Shown here: positions 3,078 through 38,112 of the stretch, one piece after another
Layout of the letters: each line of letters opens with the position of its first letter
Position numbering within the stretch: the stretch's first letter is position 1
NCBI GenBank assembly: GCA_963719945.1
Contig: CAVRDX010000001.1
Location: 448,001 to 512,000 of the forward strand
DNA length: 64,000 bases
Direction: 5' to 3'
From: an uncultured Thermoplasmata archaeon
GTDB lineage: Archaea > Thermoplasmatota > Thermoplasmata > UBA10834
Notes under the pieces: generated by a model
Seen by the model: only the letters and a program-made list of their open reading frames with translations
Databases searched by the model: none
What the model was told of the DNA's origin: nothing
Position numbers and translations under genes: made by a program

Positions 3078-3860
3078 TCAGAAGAAGCCAGGTCCGAAAC
3101 TGTTGAGCATCGGATTCAGATCGGCATGTATCATCGGTCCTTCCATTCCTGGGGGCATTGTCTGTGGGACCTCTTCCGATGCATCCGTGAATCCGGATAT
3201 CTCTTCCATGAGCGAGCTCACATACGAGCTGGTCTGTTGGGAAACGGAGTCCACGATCTTCATGACGCTCCTGTCGATGACTCCCATTGCCTCAGAGATC
3301 GGCAAATCGTCTCCCAGGCCGACCAACTTGTTATTGTCGAGCACGACCGTGAAATTCGCGTTTTCCTTTAGCTTGCCGAGCCCATGCATCGCAGTCTTCC
3401 TGCGCTGTGCGCCCTCTACATCGAATGGAAGTATCGGTACAGCGAACGAGATCGCGTTCATCTCCTTGGCGACATTTGCCACTATGGGCGCAACGCCCGT
3501 ACCCGTGCCGCCGCCCATCCCTGCGACGACGAACACGATGTCGTAGCCTCTTATCGCCTCTCTTATGACCTCGCGAGCCTTCTCCGCGCAATGCTCACCG
3601 ATCTCAGGGTAGCCGCTGGCATCTTTGCCAAAGGACACATCCTTGCCTATCAACACCTTCCGGTGAGCATCTGTCTTCCTCAAATGCTCCTCATCCGTGT
3701 TGATGGCAACGGTCTCGACTCTATTGTGCTTCCAGTACATCCCATGCACAATATTCGAGCCTGCCCCTCCGCAGCCAACGACTGCAATCGTCGGTTCGCC
3801 CAAACTCACTCCCAATGAATTGATTATCTCTTCCGTCCTGCTCCCTTCTTCCGCCGTCAT
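3078..3860 (-). CDS. FtsZ-like GTPase, N-terminal domain only (no T7 loop or C-terminal domain)
   Basis: GCGGAGSN, INTD, GMGGGTGTG, PFDVEG and DNNKL motifs; no NxDxAD after helix H7; start placed at MTAEE (260 aa). Confidence 0.85.
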   Translation of the reverse strand: MTAEEGSRTEEIINSLGVSLGEPTIAVVGCGGAGSNIVHGMYWKHNRVETVAINTDEEHLRKTDAHRKVLIGKDVSFGKDASGYPEIGEHCAEKAREVIREAIRGYDIVFVVAGMGGGTGTGVAPIVANVAKEMNAISFAVPILPFDVEGAQRRKTAMHGLGKLKENANFTVVLDNNKLVGLGDDLPISEAMGVIDRSVMKIVDSVSQQTSSYVSSLMEEISGFTDASEEVPQTMPPGMEGPMIHADLNPMLNSFGPGFF

Positions 3861-3954
3861 CCTTTTCTGGCCTCCGTTCACCGTTGACAATCGAGAGAGG
3901 ACCCTCTCTGCTGAGAGAATCCCCCCACCACGCCAAGGCGCCCACAAACGGTGC

Positions 3955-4335
3955 CTACGCTCGGGGAACGATCTTAACCGTGCTCCTCTGTTGGGTCACG
4001 TCCTTCTTTATGGTCTCCACGTGATCCGCGTGGAGGAAGTGGTGTCGGGCGCAATCGCTGAGCGCTTCGGATACTGAATTGTAGACTCCCTCGGCCACGA
4101 GGTGTACAACCGTATCCATCACTAGAGGTGGTAGCTCCACAACCACCTCATTCGGTTTGCTGTTCGCTCCCTCTGCACAGCCTAGCTTAGCATCCATGTA
4201 TGCGCGTATTGCAGCGCGTGCTAGTTGCGACCTGTTGGAGAACTCCTTGCTGTTCGTTATGAACTCATCGATTAGTCGGAGATCATCCGAGTCAAGGCGA
4301 AGAGTTATCCGTTCATTCTCCAACGGGTCGTTCAT
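3955..4335 (-). CDS. tandem ribbon-helix-helix (CopG/CdrS-like) transcription factor
   Basis: RITLRL...NRSQLARAAIR plus a second VVVELP...SVSEALSDCAR unit; upstream of the ftsZ-like gene, as in cdrS-ftsZ loci. Confidence 0.75.
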   Translation of the reverse strand: MNDPLENERITLRLDSDDLRLIDEFITNSKEFSNRSQLARAAIRAYMDAKLGCAEGANSKPNEVVVELPPLVMDTVVHLVAEGVYNSVSEALSDCARHHFLHADHVETIKKDVTQQRSTVKIVPRA

Positions 4336-4375
4336 GTGTGCATCCCATCCCGATTTGCTGACGCAGAAGGAACAT

Positions 4376-4490
4376 ATGTCATACAATCATATATATAGGT
4401 ATCCAAAATGTCACATTTCGTCTGATAATGTCATACCAAGTCCACTGGCCTGTCATAACTGTGTCTTCAAACTGTGCCGCCAGTCATCCA
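4376..4490 (-). promoter_or_regulatory. promoter of the RHH-ftsZ-like operon with repeated TGTCATAC-like boxes
   Basis: TATA-like (AT)n at 4389-4397; ATGTCATAC at 4376 and 4428, ATGTCACAT at 4408, TGTCATAAC at 4451, AGTCATCC at 4482. Confidence 0.55.
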
Positions 4491-9832: not shown

Positions 9833-10381
9833 CTACTCTCCCTCCCAGCGCTTGTATAATGAGTTCTCTATATCCAGTATGTCTAGGATCCTCCCGACGA
9901 GGAAGTCGACCATGTCATCGACGGTGTCCGGATTCGGGTAGAACGCCGGGCTTGCTGGCATGATGACGGCACCTGCTGCTGAGAGCCTATGCATGTTTTC
10001 AAGATGTATTGTCGAAAGCGGGGTTTCGCGCACGAGCAGTACGAGCTTCCGCCTCTCCTTCAATGCGATCGATGCTACCCTCGTGATGAGCGTGTCGGAT
10101 ATTCCGCAAGCAATCTTCGACATAGTCGATACGCTACAAGGAGCGATTATGACATTGTCGAATCTGCTGGAACCTGATGCAACAGGGGCTGCCAGGTCAG
10201 CGTTGTCATAATGTTCATCTGCCAGGGATTCTATCTCCTTCCTCTCTAGGTTCATCTCGATCCGGGCGACGTGCATCCCATCCTCTGACAAGATGACCGT
10301 CTTATCGCTCGGGAGCGCTTTCAGAAGCCGTATGCCGTATGCTGTTCCTGATGCTCCAGTGATGCCGACTACAGTTCTCAC
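9833..10381 (-). CDS. ubiX: flavin prenyltransferase UbiX
   Basis: GITGASG, ASGS, APCS, LKERRKLVLLVRETP, PASPAFY. Confidence 0.95.
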   Translation of the reverse strand: MRTVVGITGASGTAYGIRLLKALPSDKTVILSEDGMHVARIEMNLERKEIESLADEHYDNADLAAPVASGSSRFDNVIIAPCSVSTMSKIACGISDTLITRVASIALKERRKLVLLVRETPLSTIHLENMHRLSAAGAVIMPASPAFYPNPDTVDDMVDFLVGRILDILDIENSLYKRWEGE

Positions 10382-15855: not shown

Positions 15856-15920
15856 GGCTCGCTGCCAACATTATTCGACAGTCTTATAGCAGTGTACTGA
15901 GTTTCATCTTCGGGATTGGG

Positions 15921-16343
15921 ATGACTGTTGTCACCATGCAACAGGTCGAACTAGCACTCAAGAGAACCATCGGAAAGAAAGGGATGTCCGATGAGGAGAT
16001 TGAGAAGCTAGCGGAGTACCTGATGAGTTTCTTTGGATATACAGACGAAGTCATCGATAATAGACTGACTCCTGAGGACAGGGATGTCTTCTACATGCTT
16101 GAGGAGGCGGGCCTGCTCACGACGACCCAGGAAGAGGTCCTGCTCAAGAAGGGCAAACTCTGGAGGATACATTACTGGATTCTGAAGAAGGATCAGATCA
16201 TCCGGCTGGCCCTAACGGCCGAGGCCGGCAAGGTAGATGTGGATCATTCGACGGATGTATATGATGAGCTGTCCGATGAGGAATGGGCAAGGCACCGCCC
16301 TTCAGTGCCCGATCCCCCTGATGGCCATGGCGAAAAAGAATGA
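15921..16343 (+). CDS. DUF6015-like small winged-helix protein
   Basis: FFGY...IDNRL...DRDVFYMLEE.GLL...EE..L..GK.WRIHYW pattern. Confidence 0.7.
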   Translation: MTVVTMQQVELALKRTIGKKGMSDEEIEKLAEYLMSFFGYTDEVIDNRLTPEDRDVFYMLEEAGLLTTTQEEVLLKKGKLWRIHYWILKKDQIIRLALTAEAGKVDVDHSTDVYDELSDEEWARHRPSVPDPPDGHGEKE

Positions 16344-19793: not shown

Positions 19794-20105
19794 TGCTAGG
19801 CGACTGGGGTTGCCGGCCTCTCCATGCGCCAGCTACCCAGAAACCTCCTCGGTCCCGCTTCCCGGTGAGCGTTGATAGTTCGCGGTAAGGCTGCTCCCGT
19901 CAGGGCCTGACCCGATCTCCGCGACAAAGGCAGACACTCCCGCCCTCCGGCAGGAGCATATAGCCCCCTTCAACCCCATCGGACAGGGCCTCACTGTCGG
20001 CTTCTGGACTGGCGCCGGTTCGGTTACGACGTCCCCAGCTGTCACCCCCACTGTCGACGATTTTGGTGTATAAGGACACGCCGAACGTCCCGGTCGAGCC
20101 TAGCA
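19794..20105 (-). ncRNA. ffs: archaeal SRP (7S) RNA
   Basis: ~312 nt; paired ends (UGCUAGG/CCUAGCA); helix 8 GGUCAGGCCC-UGAC-GGGAGCAGCC; helix 6 GGAG loop; T-run downstream. Confidence 0.92.
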
Positions 20106-31850: not shown

Positions 31851-32099
31851 TGGATTCCACCACTCCCGAACTCGGATGCCCCCATAAAGCCTTTCGCGTC
31901 GTAGACCGCCCATGTCTCAAGAGTGATGGGTCATAGTAGTACCAGAACCATGGAGAAGTACTATGCTCGGGTAAGAGAGGACGACGCAATCGAGGGCCTG
32001 AATCGTCTATTCGAAGATAGAGATGGACCATCAAGAACACAGCCGCGTCCTAAACCTTTGATTGAAAAGCGAGAATATATGTCTGGCTATGCATAGGTG

Positions 32100-32171
32100 T
32101 GGACCCTGTGGGATTTGAACCCACGACCTCTTCCTTGCGAAGGAAGCGATCTTCCACTGATCTAAGGGCCC
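32100..32171 (-). tRNA. tRNA-Ala(CGC)
   Basis: Full cloverleaf, anticodon loop TTCGCAA, G3:U70 pair, discriminator A, CCA not encoded. Confidence 0.97.
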
Positions 32172-34670: not shown

Positions 34671-36010
34671 GCCTCCTTGGTAGAGAAGTCCGCTCCTTTG
34701 AACTGCTTCATGAGCTGCCTGCGCATCTTCCGGTTGCCCATGAAACCCTTCATGGCCTTCTTGGACATGTCATATTGCTTCAACAGCTCCTTGACTTCCT
34801 TTGTTGTAGTTCCGCTCCCGCGCGCAACCCTGATGATCCTGGACGATTTGATGAGCTTCGGGTTCTCCAGCTCCTCTTCGGTCATGGAATCCATTATAAC
34901 CCTGAACCTTGCCAAACGCTCCTGGGTCGCCTCCATGTCCTGGTCCTGAAGCTTGTCTGACATGCCTGGCAACATGGATGCGATCTTCTTCAGAGGCCCC
35001 ATACCCTGGAGCATCTCCATCTGATCGTACATCTCCTTCAGAGAGAACTTGCCGGACATCATCTTGCGTGCGGATTCTTCGGCCTTCTCCTCATCCATGA
35101 CCTCGCTCGCGACCTCTATGAGGGACTTTATATCCCCCATCCCTAGCAGCCTGCTTATGAACCTATCAGGGTCGAACCGCTCGAGATCCTCGAGATGCTC
35201 TCCCACTCCGACGTAACATATCGGGGCACCTGTCTCCGCGACCGCGCTGAGTGCGCCGCCGCCTTTGGCGGTGCCGTCCAACTTGGTTATTATCACGCCA
35301 GTGACATGAACCGCGTCATGGAACGCCTTCGCCTGAGGACCTGCCTGCTGTCCCGTCTGGGCGTCCAGGACCAGTATCTTCTGCTCAGCGTCGACTATCT
35401 TGGCGACTGATTCGATCTCATCGATCAGGTCGTCCTCTAAGGCGTGTCTGCCAGATGTGTCGAATATGATGACATCGTAATCCGAGAACTCCTTCATCGC
35501 CCGCTTCGCTATCTTGACAGCGCTCTTCTCTTTGGGATCGCCGAACACGGGCACGTTTATCTTGGCGCCTATCTGGGTCAGCTGATCAAAGGCAGCAGGC
35601 CTGTGGACATCGGCGGCAACGAGGCCGACCTTCATGCCCCTCTTGTGGAGGTCCTTGGCCAATTTGCCGGAAGTGGTCGTCTTTCCTTGGCCATAGAGAC
35701 CCACCATCAGGATGCGCTGGGGTTTGGCAGGTATCTCCCTGCCCTTGCCGATGATCTTGACCAGCTCCTCATAGACTATCTTTATGACATGCTCTCGCGA
35801 ACTCATGCCCGCAGGAGGCTTCTCTGTGAGAGCTCTATGCTCGAGCTCCTTGGTCATCGAGATGACGAGCTTGACATTGATGTCGGCTTGGAGGAGCGCA
35901 CGCTGAATATCCTTCACGACTTCCTTGACAAGCCTCTGATCAACATGCGATGCGTTGGCGATCTTTTTTATCGCATCTTTTAGAGCGCCACCGAGGTTTT
36001 CCAGTACCAT
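34667..36010 (-). CDS. srp54: signal recognition particle protein SRP54
   Basis: GLYGQGKTT, DTSGR, TKLDGTAKGGGALSA, Met-rich M domain with RVARGSG. Confidence 0.98.
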   Translation of the reverse strand: MVLENLGGALKDAIKKIANASHVDQRLVKEVVKDIQRALLQADINVKLVISMTKELEHRALTEKPPAGMSSREHVIKIVYEELVKIIGKGREIPAKPQRILMVGLYGQGKTTTSGKLAKDLHKRGMKVGLVAADVHRPAAFDQLTQIGAKINVPVFGDPKEKSAVKIAKRAMKEFSDYDVIIFDTSGRHALEDDLIDEIESVAKIVDAEQKILVLDAQTGQQAGPQAKAFHDAVHVTGVIITKLDGTAKGGGALSAVAETGAPICYVGVGEHLEDLERFDPDRFISRLLGMGDIKSLIEVASEVMDEEKAEESARKMMSGKFSLKEMYDQMEMLQGMGPLKKIASMLPGMSDKLQDQDMEATQERLARFRVIMDSMTEEELENPKLIKSSRIIRVARGSGTTTKEVKELLKQYDMSKKAMKGFMGNRKMRRQLMKQFKGADFSTKEA

Positions 36011-36078
36011 CTGAATCTACTTCCGCCGCTAACGCTACGCTTCGGATAAATATGTTGCGTAGTTGTTCTTTGAATTAC

Positions 36079-36152
36079 AAAAAAAGGGAAGGGAAGGGCT
36101 AGCCTTGTCAGAAGGGATGGGATGCACTCTAACAACTAGCCCAAAATTTCCC
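36079..36152 (-). ncRNA. candidate trans-acting hairpin sRNA with a C-rich loop
   Basis: TATAAATA at 36175-36182 (minus); 15-bp stem with a U.G wobble; loop GUGCAUCCCAUCCCU; UUCCCUUCCC-U7 tail. Confidence 0.6.
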
Positions 36153-36312
36153 GAGTGATATATTGGCGGTGCTCTATTTATACTTGTCGAATCAGCCCTT
36201 AAATACTTTCCCAGGACAGAAGTCTTGGGCGAAGTGCCTAGCCAGCATGTCAAGGAAATAACGTCGCTTTTTCGACTGGCAAGACCCCCTCTTCATGTGG
36301 AGCCTGTGCACC

Positions 36313-37185
36313 TCACATGTACCCGGATTTCTGCAGTACCATGATGTCTTCGGTGCTGAGCTTCTCGCCACTCCGGAACTTGTCGTAGATCTCCTCTGCC
36401 TCTTTCTTGACAGAGTCCTCATCCTTCTCTCTACGAGATTTACGGCCCTTGTCCCGGATGCCCGTTATGATCTTATCGAAATCGTGAACCTGTCGGATAT
36501 GCTCGATGTGTTCGCGGTGCTCCTCGTCAGCAGTCAGTTTTGCCTCAATGAACTTCTCCTGGGCATCATCGGCCTGCTTTCTGATGTCGTCCGCTTGCTC
36601 ATAGAGCTTCAGCATGGCATCGTGCTCCATCTGCGCCTTCTCGGCGTATTCGGAGACCTGTCCGTGGAATGCCTCGGCCTGGTCCTTGGCTTCCCTTGCA
36701 TCGTGCTCAGCGGTCTTTACCTCGGTGAACTGCTCCATCTCCTTCTCCAAGGCGCGTATCTTGTTGCTGAGCGAGGATATCTCTTCGACCAGGGCCCTCT
36801 CCTTCTCTGTGGTCAGGACCGATGTCATATGCTTCTTCTCGAGGGCTCTCAGCTCGGCCTTGTATTTTCGGATCGATTGACCGCTCTTGGGCATGTTCTC
36901 ACGCTTGAGCGTGATGACTTTATCGCTCTGGTCGTTGAACTTCCTGTTCCACTCATCTCTCTTGGCCTTTACTGCTCGGACCTCGGCGTTGAGCTTGTCC
37001 CTCATCTCGCGTCTCGCGTTGGCCTCTTCTATAAGCTTTCGAACCTGTGCGTTCAATTCATCTCTTCGGTCGGCCCATTCCCTGGTCTTCTCATTGAGCT
37101 CATCTCTGAGCCTCTTGTGCCGTTCGGCATCGGCATTGTGCCGTGCCCGCTTCTCTTCGAGTTCCGCAACAAGCTCTTCCGTCAT
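36313..37185 (-). CDS. archaeal long coiled-coil protein (COG1340-like)
   Basis: Continuous E/K/R heptads; C-terminal KAEEIYDKF..GEKLSTEDI..LQ. Confidence 0.8.
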   Translation of the reverse strand: MTEELVAELEEKRARHNADAERHKRLRDELNEKTREWADRRDELNAQVRKLIEEANARREMRDKLNAEVRAVKAKRDEWNRKFNDQSDKVITLKRENMPKSGQSIRKYKAELRALEKKHMTSVLTTEKERALVEEISSLSNKIRALEKEMEQFTEVKTAEHDAREAKDQAEAFHGQVSEYAEKAQMEHDAMLKLYEQADDIRKQADDAQEKFIEAKLTADEEHREHIEHIRQVHDFDKIITGIRDKGRKSRREKDEDSVKKEAEEIYDKFRSGEKLSTEDIMVLQKSGYM

Positions 37186-37422
37186 ACTGTACCAACACGC
37201 CGTCAGAACACACATTGTATTGTGGACGCAGTCAGGACAATGATAGGTCCCGTTTATATCTTTTTCGATGTATGGCAATCGCTTGGTAATGTATCCTCGG
37301 GATGGAATCGTGGTCGTTGGGACGACGAACCAAGGGTCGTCCGAACGCATATTCGTCTCGAAAACATCGGCAATCTGCTTATATGGAATAACACATTAGT
37401 GATTGATAGTCGCGTAGTGGGT

Positions 37423-38112
37423 GTGCGACCAGTGAATGAGAAAGATCTCCAGCTAGTCCAGATTATCAGCTCAGAGATTCAGACAGAAGGAGACAGCGCG
37501 CTGTATCTAATATCGGTGAAGTATACCAATCTGGTCCGATTGAACTTGGTTCTTCTGAAAGCGCTCTTGGAGCAGAAACAGAAGAAAGGCATCATGATAA
37601 CGATCGATCGACCTCATCAATATGTCTCGCATCTCCTCCAGCTCCATAGCATTGATCAGAGCAACCTCACTTTCGTTGATGCCATTTCCATACACTCATC
37701 AGATACGAAAGGCGGTGCAGTCGCTGCGGAATTCCAGAAAGGCCCTTTCCATATCGAGGTGTTGCCGGAGTTCATAGCGGGCTCGAACGGCTCCAATCCT
37801 GCCATCATTTCGGAGTTCTCACATGTCGAGTTCGTCGTGATGGACAATGTGTCCACTCTGCTGACATATAACACGATGGAGAGCGTCGAGACATTCTTCG
37901 CAAAGTATCTCGACGTCGTGAAGAATAGAGCTACCCACCGAGTGATCACTGTATTGGCGATGGACAAGGAGGTCCATTCGATCCTCTTCGAATTTGTGTC
38001 CAAAATTGCGACGAAGACTATCGAATTGTCTCCTGACATGAAGATACAACATGTCTTTCAGGGCAATCCTGGAGGACCGACTGAGCGCGAAATTTCGAAG
38101 GATGTGATGTGA
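37423..38112 (+). CDS. inactive KaiC/RecA-fold-like protein
   Basis: ITIDRP...FVDAIS...VVMDNVSTLLTYN; no Walker A; overlaps the downstream ATPase start region. Confidence 0.65.
   Translation: MRPVNEKDLQLVQIISSEIQTEGDSALYLISVKYTNLVRLNLVLLKALLEQKQKKGIMITIDRPHQYVSHLLQLHSIDQSNLTFVDAISIHSSDTKGGAVAAEFQKGPFHIEVLPEFIAGSNGSNPAIISEFSHVEFVVMDNVSTLLTYNTMESVETFFAKYLDVVKNRATHRVITVLAMDKEVHSILFEFVSKIATKTIELSPDMKIQHVFQGNPGGPTEREISKDVM

Follow-up and report, generated by a model that had tools for sequence, protein, structure and literature searches.

On the minus strand between a coiled-coil gene and srp54, a 64,000-nucleotide stretch of an uncultured Thermoplasmata archaeon (contig CAVRDX010000001.1, positions 448,001 to 512,000; this whole stretch is referred to here as the window) contains a hairpin whose C-rich loop is the reverse complement of a sequence 32 kb away, immediately ahead of a ribbon-helix-helix (RHH) gene that is followed by an FtsZ-like gene. 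Is this hairpin a small RNA (sRNA) gene, and does its loop recognize messenger RNAs (mRNAs) at their ribosome-binding sites? A sequence-only reading of the window had proposed a C-rich-loop sRNA aimed at the RHH operon. Our analysis agrees with that reading on a stand-alone gene and a complementarity to the ribosome-binding site, which is conserved in orthologous loci, and departs from it in that this is not a single local case: the predicted sRNA is a member of an RNA family found across the phylum Thermoplasmatota, with about one gene per genome, and a second, mirror copy of its hairpin stands at another RHH gene. We put the probability at roughly 60% that the RNA is a trans-acting antisense sRNA that masks the ribosome-binding sites of CdrS-like/FtsZ-family mRNAs and some others.

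The predicted sRNA is about 75 nt long (36079-36153, minus strand), with a start near 36153/36152 placed by the spacing from a TATA box, TATAAATA (36182-36175), and an end placed by a U7 run (36085-36079) that resembles an archaeal oligo-U terminator and recurs as a conserved T run in homologs. Sequence and folding define nested helices between 36086 and 36152. The outermost of the three is a basal helix in which GGGAA (36152-36148) pairs with UUCCC, its first G lying 22 nt downstream of the TATA box; a second helix joins GGGCUAG (36142-36136) to CUAGCCC (36102-36096), and an inner helix, which contains a U.G pair, joins UUGUUAGA (36135-36128) to UCUGACAA (36112-36105). Together they hold out a 15-nt apical loop, GUGCAUCCCAUCCCU (36127-36113), the proposed seed, whose 14-mer is mostly unpaired in folding. 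The segment UUCCCUUCCC (36095-36086) lies between the second helix and the U run. The 5' arm of the inner stem and the loop seed form a 19-mer, UUAGAGUGCAUCCCAUCCC (36114-36132), that is near-invariant among relatives. The TATA box, hairpin, U.G pair and U7 run described by the sequence-only reading are all present; the basal helix is an addition to that description. The minus strand folds at -28.1 kcal/mol (z -4.1), a value matched by 0 of 200 shuffles, and the plus strand folds more weakly (-25.6 kcal/mol, z -2.7). These features support a free-standing small RNA gene, predicted to have its own TATA promoter and oligo-U terminator.

Comparison with homologs bears out this architecture, and units from other classes of the phylum keep the same design. 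Upstream of the basal helix, 65 of the 104 unique units carry a strict TATA-like octamer, separated from the helix's first G by 18-37 nt; 61 of these 65 have a spacing of 18-24 nt (mode 21-22 nt). A run of at least four T begins 20-39 nt past the 19-mer seed in 95 of the 104. The apex comes in three designs, variant A (that of the window) with UCUGACAA, variant B with CCUCCUAGUGAGG and variant C with ACCAUCCUUCC; the 19-mer is unchanged in all three, and the mean unpaired probability of its 14-nt core is 0.71-0.78 (55, 39 and 12 unique sequences, respectively). Length differences among the variants are not multiples of 3. Alignment with MAFFT and RNAalifold recovered the second helix alone when all variants were included and the invariant inner stem alone for variant A, so the basal helix was scored by folding each sequence separately. 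This places at least two helices around the seed in 109 of 112 unique homologs. The basal helix is built from 52 distinct sequence pairs (for example GGGAA/UUCCC, GGAAGGA/UCCUUCC, GGGGAGA/UCUCCCU and AGGGC/GCCCU), and the second helix has G-C in place of A-U in 36 sequences and a G.U intermediate in 10. The nested helices show compensatory variation around a seed that stays mostly unpaired. The genomic setting varies as well: a DUF7121 coiled-coil gene lies upstream on the same strand in 43 of 55 variant-A loci, and srp54 follows in 41 of 56, but it does not follow in any of the 35 variant-B and 9 variant-C loci. Since the DUF7121-srp54 setting is limited to variant A, the sRNA is not a cis element of srp54. 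Conserved promoter spacing, the U run, the varied contexts and the non-triplet length differences are those of an independent, non-coding transcription unit.

The family is both widespread and strongly conserved in sequence. The 19-mer, searched as TTAGAGTGCATCCCATCCC with up to 3 mismatches, was matched in 57 of 61 related genomes representing 16 of 18 families, mostly exactly and with 1-3 copies per matching relative, the reversed-pattern control being close to 0. Conservation of hairpin and loop in relatives, which the sequence-only reading had treated as decisive, is borne out by these matches and by the covarying helices. Among 151 genomes drawn evenly from the phylum, 104 contain an exact 15-mer, AGTGCATCCCATCCC, usually in a single copy (reversed-pattern control, 0). 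An exact scan for the 19-mer in public contigs, with one genome per prokaryote species, matched at least 120 contigs; the 80 matches listed were all labeled Thermoplasmata, Thermoplasmatales, Methanomassiliicoccales or Thermoplasmatota, or carried generic archaeal labels (Methanobacteriota/Euryarchaeota metagenome-assembled genomes). Two families that first seemed negative have diverged versions, with the loop AGUGCAUCCCAUCCU inside the same nested helices in f10 and a minimal hairpin in f14, and no candidate was found in the two near-complete genomes of family f11. In one genome of family f27 (G162), two 15-mers lie 44 nt apart within a GC-rich region (L287, 1204-1262), apparently as tandem hairpins; the same genome has a normal single-copy unit elsewhere.

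What the loop might recognize is indicated by the leader of the RHH gene. The motif GGGAUGGGAUGCAC (4351-4338, minus strand) ends 2 nt before the ATG (4335-4333) and is, as the sequence-only reading had noticed, the exact reverse complement of the loop 14-mer GTGCATCCCATCCC / GUGCAUCCCAUCCC (36114-36127, minus strand). Far from being common, the exact 14-mer has 3 occurrences in the 1.78-Mb genome: in the sRNA, in the RHH leader and in another hairpin, on contig C3. The RHH gene (3955-4335, minus strand) encodes a 126-residue CdrS-like protein that matches Pfam RHH_8 and RHH_1; its best NCBIfam match is "transcriptional regulator CdrS", at 27.9 bits against a cut-off of 100, and the same model is the top NCBIfam match, again below cut-off, for the other two of the three RHH proteins discussed here (40.4 and 61.8 bits). 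Directly downstream, in the same orientation and after a gap of 7 nt, lies the FtsZ-like gene (3078-3947, minus strand; 289 residues), whose product has the Pfam Tubulin/FtsZ GTPase domain (1.8e-40) without the FtsZ_C domain and scores 204 bits against TIGR00065 ftsZ, for which the cut-off is 295. An RHH gene is paired with an FtsZ-family gene in 13 of the 14 other loci fetched, locus L174 having no RHH match. The operon has a TATA box, TATATATA (4397-4390, minus strand), that is conserved in the leader alignment and, with the start set by TATA spacing, would put the motif inside a 5' untranslated region (UTR) of about 32 nt. Further upstream is a conserved inverted repeat, AAATGTGACATTT (4406-4418, minus strand), and near the predicted transcription start is a palindrome, ACATATGT (4372-4379, minus strand); both are candidate operators for transcriptional autoregulation.

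The complementarity between loop and leader persists in orthologous loci. In all four genera of the family (g1-g4) the 14-mer is exact at the RHH ribosome-binding site, while the flanking bases and the start codon (ATG or TTG) vary around it. Sister family f2 shows a single mismatch in one genome, whose leader is otherwise unalignable, and 3 in another. More broadly, among 14 further loci from seven families (f1, f2, f4 with two loci, f7, f9, f15 and f18), 13 have a sense-strand copy of the motif with no more than 2 mismatches ahead of the FtsZ-like gene, where about 0.02 such matches per locus would be expected by chance. Because the complementarity is conserved across genomes, a chance match of loop and leader is ruled out. 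In f4 (both loci), f7, f9, f15 and f18 the copy has 0-2 mismatches; it sits between the RHH and FtsZ-like genes in f4, f7, f15 and f18, the f9 locus being L174. These copies often form mirror hairpins of the type gucagaa-GGGAUGGGAUGCAC-ucuaac, and the conserved GCAC extension of the target motif is not Shine-Dalgarno (SD)-like, yet matches the loop. A further pairing, between CUGAC of the sRNA and GUCAG farther up the window leader, had also been suggested; GUCAG is present at 4362-4358 but is not conserved, the corresponding bases being GUCUG or GUCUA within the genus and GUCAA in g2.

The predicted duplex between the sRNA and the RHH leader has an energy of -30.9 kcal/mol, compared with -11.7 kcal/mol for the 16S 3' tail on the same leader. 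In a genome-wide duplex scan, the RHH leader was the best match among 5' leaders and the second-best non-self match overall. The top non-self duplex (C4:338836-338855, -32.0 kcal/mol) is antisense to a membrane-protein open reading frame (ORF) with no link to RHH or FtsZ genes, and we treated it as chance.

The second hairpin, termed type 2, also belongs to an RHH locus. Its apical part (G000:C3:304226-304290, where G000 is the genome under study) shares 20 identical nt, GUUAGAGUGCAUCCCAUCCC, with the window sRNA; its outer stem differs but still pairs. The copy (G000:C3:304188-304290, equivalent to L002:2689-2791) lies directly past the stop codon of a 78-residue CdrS-like gene, RHH2, on the RHH strand between that stop and a C-rich U7 terminator, GGAUUACCUCCCCCCUAUUUUUUU. 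Given this position in the 3' flank, a perfect complement of the sRNA, 20 nt long, is expected in the 3' UTR of the RHH2 mRNA. Copies of this type are conserved in families f1 and f2, and the RHH2-type arrangement is also present in another class (G079). The strand oriented like the window sRNA folds better than the other (-21.5 versus -14.9 kcal/mol), and the copy may also be transcribed convergently, as a second sRNA.

Beyond the RHH loci, a shorter form of the motif is enriched in the genome and recurs at start codons. The 10-mer GGATGGGATG occurs 29 times against 3.7 expected, and about 10 of the 29 sites lie 0-5 nt before, or overlap, the starts of long ORFs. As its general SD sequence the genome uses the canonical GGAGGTGAT, in agreement with a 16S tail that is itself canonical. 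The sRNA loop AUCCCAUCC is identical at 7 of 9 positions to the anti-SD tail of 16S, AUCACCUCC, and the target motif GGAUGGGAU differs from a perfect SD at the two complementary positions. With this double change, mRNAs bearing the variant SD would match the sRNA perfectly but the ribosome imperfectly. One gene that has the 10-mer at its start encodes a full-length FtsZ paralog (G000:C1:23689-24798). Here GGAUGGGAU stands 2-6 nt before the AUG in 29 of 29 orthologs from the family and in 9 orthologs from other families of the class, with divergent flanks in both sets, and it is absent from the two f11 genomes in which the sRNA was not found. The other ORFs that have this 10-mer at the start are of mixed function (DUF835, nitroreductase, Na+/H+ exchanger, KaiC-like ATPase and proteins of unknown function), and a single regulon theme was rejected on this account. 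A 76-residue ORF (...WVKTHTLQDLEDL...; G000:C1:686273-686503, minus strand) has the motif at its ribosome-binding site, where its homolog in a different family (L154, G040) has the perfect 14-mer; this ORF is a candidate second conserved target.

These observations suggest the following mechanism. Two or three nested helices would hold out the near-invariant, C-rich apical sequence, which would pair in trans with G-rich, SD-like motifs of the form GGGAUGGGAUG(CAC) on or beside ribosome-binding sites in a limited number of mRNAs. The leader of the CdrS-like RHH/FtsZ-like operon (4338-4351) would be the strongest target; further ones would be the 10-nt core before the FtsZ-paralog start and the 20-nt mirror copy in the RHH2 3' flank, so that the sRNA probably has several targets, the FtsZ paralog among them. 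The mirror hairpins could serve as extended sites of the kissing-loop type. The loop resembles an anti-SD, and the targets resemble a perfect SD altered at two positions in a compensating way, so the sRNA should prevail over the ribosome in binding them. Most likely it acts by covering the ribosome-binding site and blocking initiation, which would lower the translation, and perhaps the stability, of mRNAs for cell-division regulators.

The core of the sRNA is present in RNA libraries. Twenty runs from 14 studies (sediment, ice, soil, peat and aquatic samples), of which 14 runs are recorded as RNA, contain part of a 451-nt query around the gene; matching runs have 7-14% of the sampled words, as would be expected if only the conserved core were present. 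Metatranscriptome contigs from three studies cover 36076-36192 only and then diverge, as expected for relatives; a further run (X2) yielded no contigs. The contigs show the presence of the conserved core in RNA libraries, and neither a discrete transcript nor its strand, ends or level.

Several observations weigh against ribosome-binding-site masking by the sRNA. The RNA-library contigs belong to relatives and run into the flanks, so that DNA carry-over is possible. Duplex energies show no clear gap between the RHH leader and the G-rich background of the genome. Seed and targets are both invariant, and for this reason no compensatory change between them could be scored; in one genome (G037) the leader differs from the motif at 3 positions, and its sRNA has not changed to match. 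The FtsZ leaders of five sRNA-carrying genomes of other classes lack the motif, and f10 has the sRNA together with a canonical SD at the FtsZ ortholog examined. The sites found therefore do not account for invariance throughout the phylum. For an sRNA that only pairs with mRNAs, an unchanging stretch of 15-19 nt across a phylum is itself out of the ordinary, and it hints at a further partner, perhaps a protein. A DNA operator would also fit the motif's link to genes for DNA-binding RHH proteins.

These points lead to other explanations. A possible extension of the masking model, which we entertain only tentatively, is an "orthogonal anti-Shine-Dalgarno": a phylum-wide master riboregulator whose loop copies the 16S tail with two substitutions, is dedicated to variant-SD mRNAs (those of CdrS-like regulators, FtsZ paralogs and others) and, through loop-loop contacts with the mirror hairpins, would set the timing or stoichiometry of the division machinery; in a bolder version the sRNA would help to deliver these mRNAs to the ribosome, not block them. 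We consider it unlikely that the RNA, though real, acts mainly through a protein or the ribosome, either as a decoy of the 16S 3' tail that titrates a factor binding that tail or C-rich RNA, or as a sequestering RNA of the 6S or CsrB kind, with its complementarity to ribosome-binding sites a by-product of its anti-SD likeness. An invariance of this length is seen more often in RNA-protein particles than in sRNAs that pair through a seed, the stretch UUAGAG that forms the 5' part is unchanged even in variants that leave it unpaired, and the 7-of-9 identity of the loop to the 16S tail and the motif-free FtsZ leaders of the five genomes from other classes could be read in the same way. Yet no protein partner was identified, and mature 16S, 23S, signal recognition particle (SRP) RNA and transfer RNAs (tRNAs) show no notable pairing with the sRNA; moreover, the conserved non-SD extension GCAC(UCUAAC) at RHH-linked sites matches the RNA beyond any anti-SD likeness, and RNA-RNA pairing is the most sensible explanation for mirror copies that reach 20 nt.

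It seems to us quite improbable that GTGCATCCCATCCC is instead an autoregulatory DNA operator for CdrS-like RHH proteins that also happens to lie inside the sRNA gene, its RNA complementarity being incidental. RHH proteins do bind DNA, CdrS and CdrL regulate the haloarchaeal cdrS-ftsZ2 locus (PMC7439475, PMC8406309), and the motif accompanies RHH genes at three kinds of place, namely the 5' leader of the window gene (RHH1), the 3' flank of RHH2 and, in other families, the spacer between RHH and FtsZ-like genes. Against an operator stand the orientation of the motif, sense at all the mRNA-linked sites examined and antisense throughout the sRNA units, and its SD-like distance from the start codon at RHH1, the FtsZ paralog and about 8 other genes; it also lies in the loop of a covarying hairpin, about 25-40 nt inside the transcript, and the RHH1 promoter has better candidate operators in the repeats at 4406-4418 and 4372-4379. 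That hairpin and U run are a cis element only, either a terminator of the upstream DUF7121 gene or an srp54 attenuator, is highly improbable. The same-strand placement of variant A between these two genes would suit such an element, but a TATA box of its own stands at conserved spacing ahead of the sRNA, another TATA-like box lies about 35 nt before the srp54 ATG, variants B and C (44 loci) keep the sequence in other contexts, and a terminator would not need an invariant loop.

Other sites in the window and genome show varying degrees of complementarity to the loop. Two looser matches listed by the sequence-only reading are present, each overlapping an ORF start: GGGAUUGGGAUG (15912-15923, plus strand) at a 140-residue ORF (ATG at 15921) and GGGAUGGGAAUG (28473-28462, minus strand) at an ORF of 105-109 residues. 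Both are candidate weaker targets, with duplex energies (-21.5 and -20.4 kcal/mol, respectively) inside the genome background. Within a UbiX/flavoprotein-like coding sequence (9833-10381, minus strand), CUUGUCAGAGGAUGGGAUGCAC (10262-10287, minus strand) complements the loop and the whole 3' arm of the sRNA at 22 of 24 positions with a 2-nt gap. This copy may be an internal target, a relic or a product of chance. No convincing housekeeping partner emerged from pairing with mature 16S, 23S, SRP RNA and 31 tRNAs, for which the best duplexes were -18.4 (16S), -25.0 (23S search), -17.6 (SRP RNA) and -20.8 kcal/mol (tRNAs). In the pre-23S leader, about 110 nt upstream of 23S, a split seed complement, AGGAUGGGG-5 nt-GUGCACUC (G000:C1:130360-130381, minus strand; -25.0 kcal/mol), is probably a chance match, its energy being inside the genome background. 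The genome has at least 5 full-length FtsZ paralogs (G000:C1:23689-26265, C4:225407-227753 and C4:235646-236695) in addition to the short FtsZ-like gene of the window. One of the C4 ftsZ genes is preceded by a two-RHH CdrS-like gene (the 61.8-bit match), with a weak motif, GGAUGGGAAU, in the spacer.

We also asked whether the RNA belongs to a known class. At the gathering score, Rfam 15 identified an SRP RNA and a tRNA only in the whole window, and cmscan of 35950-36350 against Rfam 15, including DicF (RF00039), gave no match at E<=10. ARAGORN ruled out a tRNA or transfer-messenger RNA. A guide RNA would be expected to have either a K-turn built from C (RUGAUGA) and D (CUGA) boxes or a pseudouridylation pocket together with an ACA box. 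On inspection there is no C box, the sole CUGA lies inside a Watson-Crick helix and no 3' ACA box is present, and there is no good complementarity to 16S/23S ribosomal RNA; both archaeal C/D-box and H/ACA guides were rejected. Literature searches found no Thermoplasmata or Thermoplasmatota sRNA of this kind and no sRNA control of cdrS-ftsZ2. With no Rfam match and no describing paper found, the sRNA family is previously undescribed. Elsewhere in the window, the archaeal SRP RNA (19794-20105, minus strand; 169 bits) has no relation to the hairpin and is 16 kb away from srp54, and a tRNA-Ala(CGC) occupies 32099-32171 (minus strand). Next to the sRNA gene, a 605-residue plus-strand ORF (36295-38112) overlaps the DUF7121 gene (36313-37350, minus strand) and is probably spurious, the Pfam match being on the minus-strand ORF only.

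To our knowledge, archaeal regulatory sRNAs are few, poorly conserved and rarely tied to a conserved target, and only transcriptional control has been described so far for CdrS-like/FtsZ genes. Here, one sRNA family with a near-invariant seed spans a phylum that includes abundant uncultured sediment, soil and marine lineages as well as gut methanogens, and its best-supported partners are CdrS-like/FtsZ genes, which control cell division. The conserved complementarity points to RNA-level control of archaeal cell division. If the masking model is correct, this would be the first conserved post-transcriptional layer of that control; it would offer a ready-made seed/target pair for experiments and add a new, currently unannotated RNA family, with about one gene per genome, to genome annotation.

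How does this sRNA compare with known systems? Firmicutes have widely conserved sRNAs of the RsaE/RoxS type, in which unpaired C-rich motifs pair with the G-rich SD regions of several mRNAs; these have a different fold, several short CCC motifs rather than one 14-19-nt seed, and metabolic targets. In haloarchaea, CdrS and CdrL regulate a cdrS-ftsZ2 locus of a type reported to be conserved across archaea, and the word "sRNA" does not occur in the two papers describing them (PMC7439475, PMC8406309). The window operon resembles cdrS-ftsZ2 of Halobacteria in that a small RHH gene lies directly upstream of, and is probably co-transcribed with, an FtsZ-family gene; it differs in that the RHH proteins fall below the cut-off of the CdrS model and the FtsZ-like paralog is short and lacks the C-terminal domain. 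Among archaeal sRNAs, sRNA41 and sRNA154 of Methanosarcina mazei are intergenic and contain anti-ribosome-binding-site sequences; like the window sRNA, they are trans-encoded, with an exposed part complementary to ribosome-binding sites, including sites inside polycistronic mRNAs, and translational repression has been proposed for them (review PMC5867862). They are unrelated to it in sequence and structure, genus-level in distribution and nitrogen-responsive, whereas the window sRNA combines phylum-wide invariance with cell-division genes as its best targets and mirror hairpin copies in the target loci. Bacterial DicF of E. coli, the cis-antisense StfZ and a Klebsiella sRNA act on ftsZ (PMC5069750, PMC9628754, PMC10907235) and provide the parallel of a small RNA that pairs with the ftsZ ribosome-binding region and controls cell division. 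None is homologous to the window sRNA, DicF is prophage-borne and Hfq-dependent, and the main site proposed here precedes a CdrS-like regulator co-encoded with an FtsZ-like gene. The nearest analogues are thus functional only, and the breadth, sequence invariance and cell-division targets of the Thermoplasmatota family are unusual among them.

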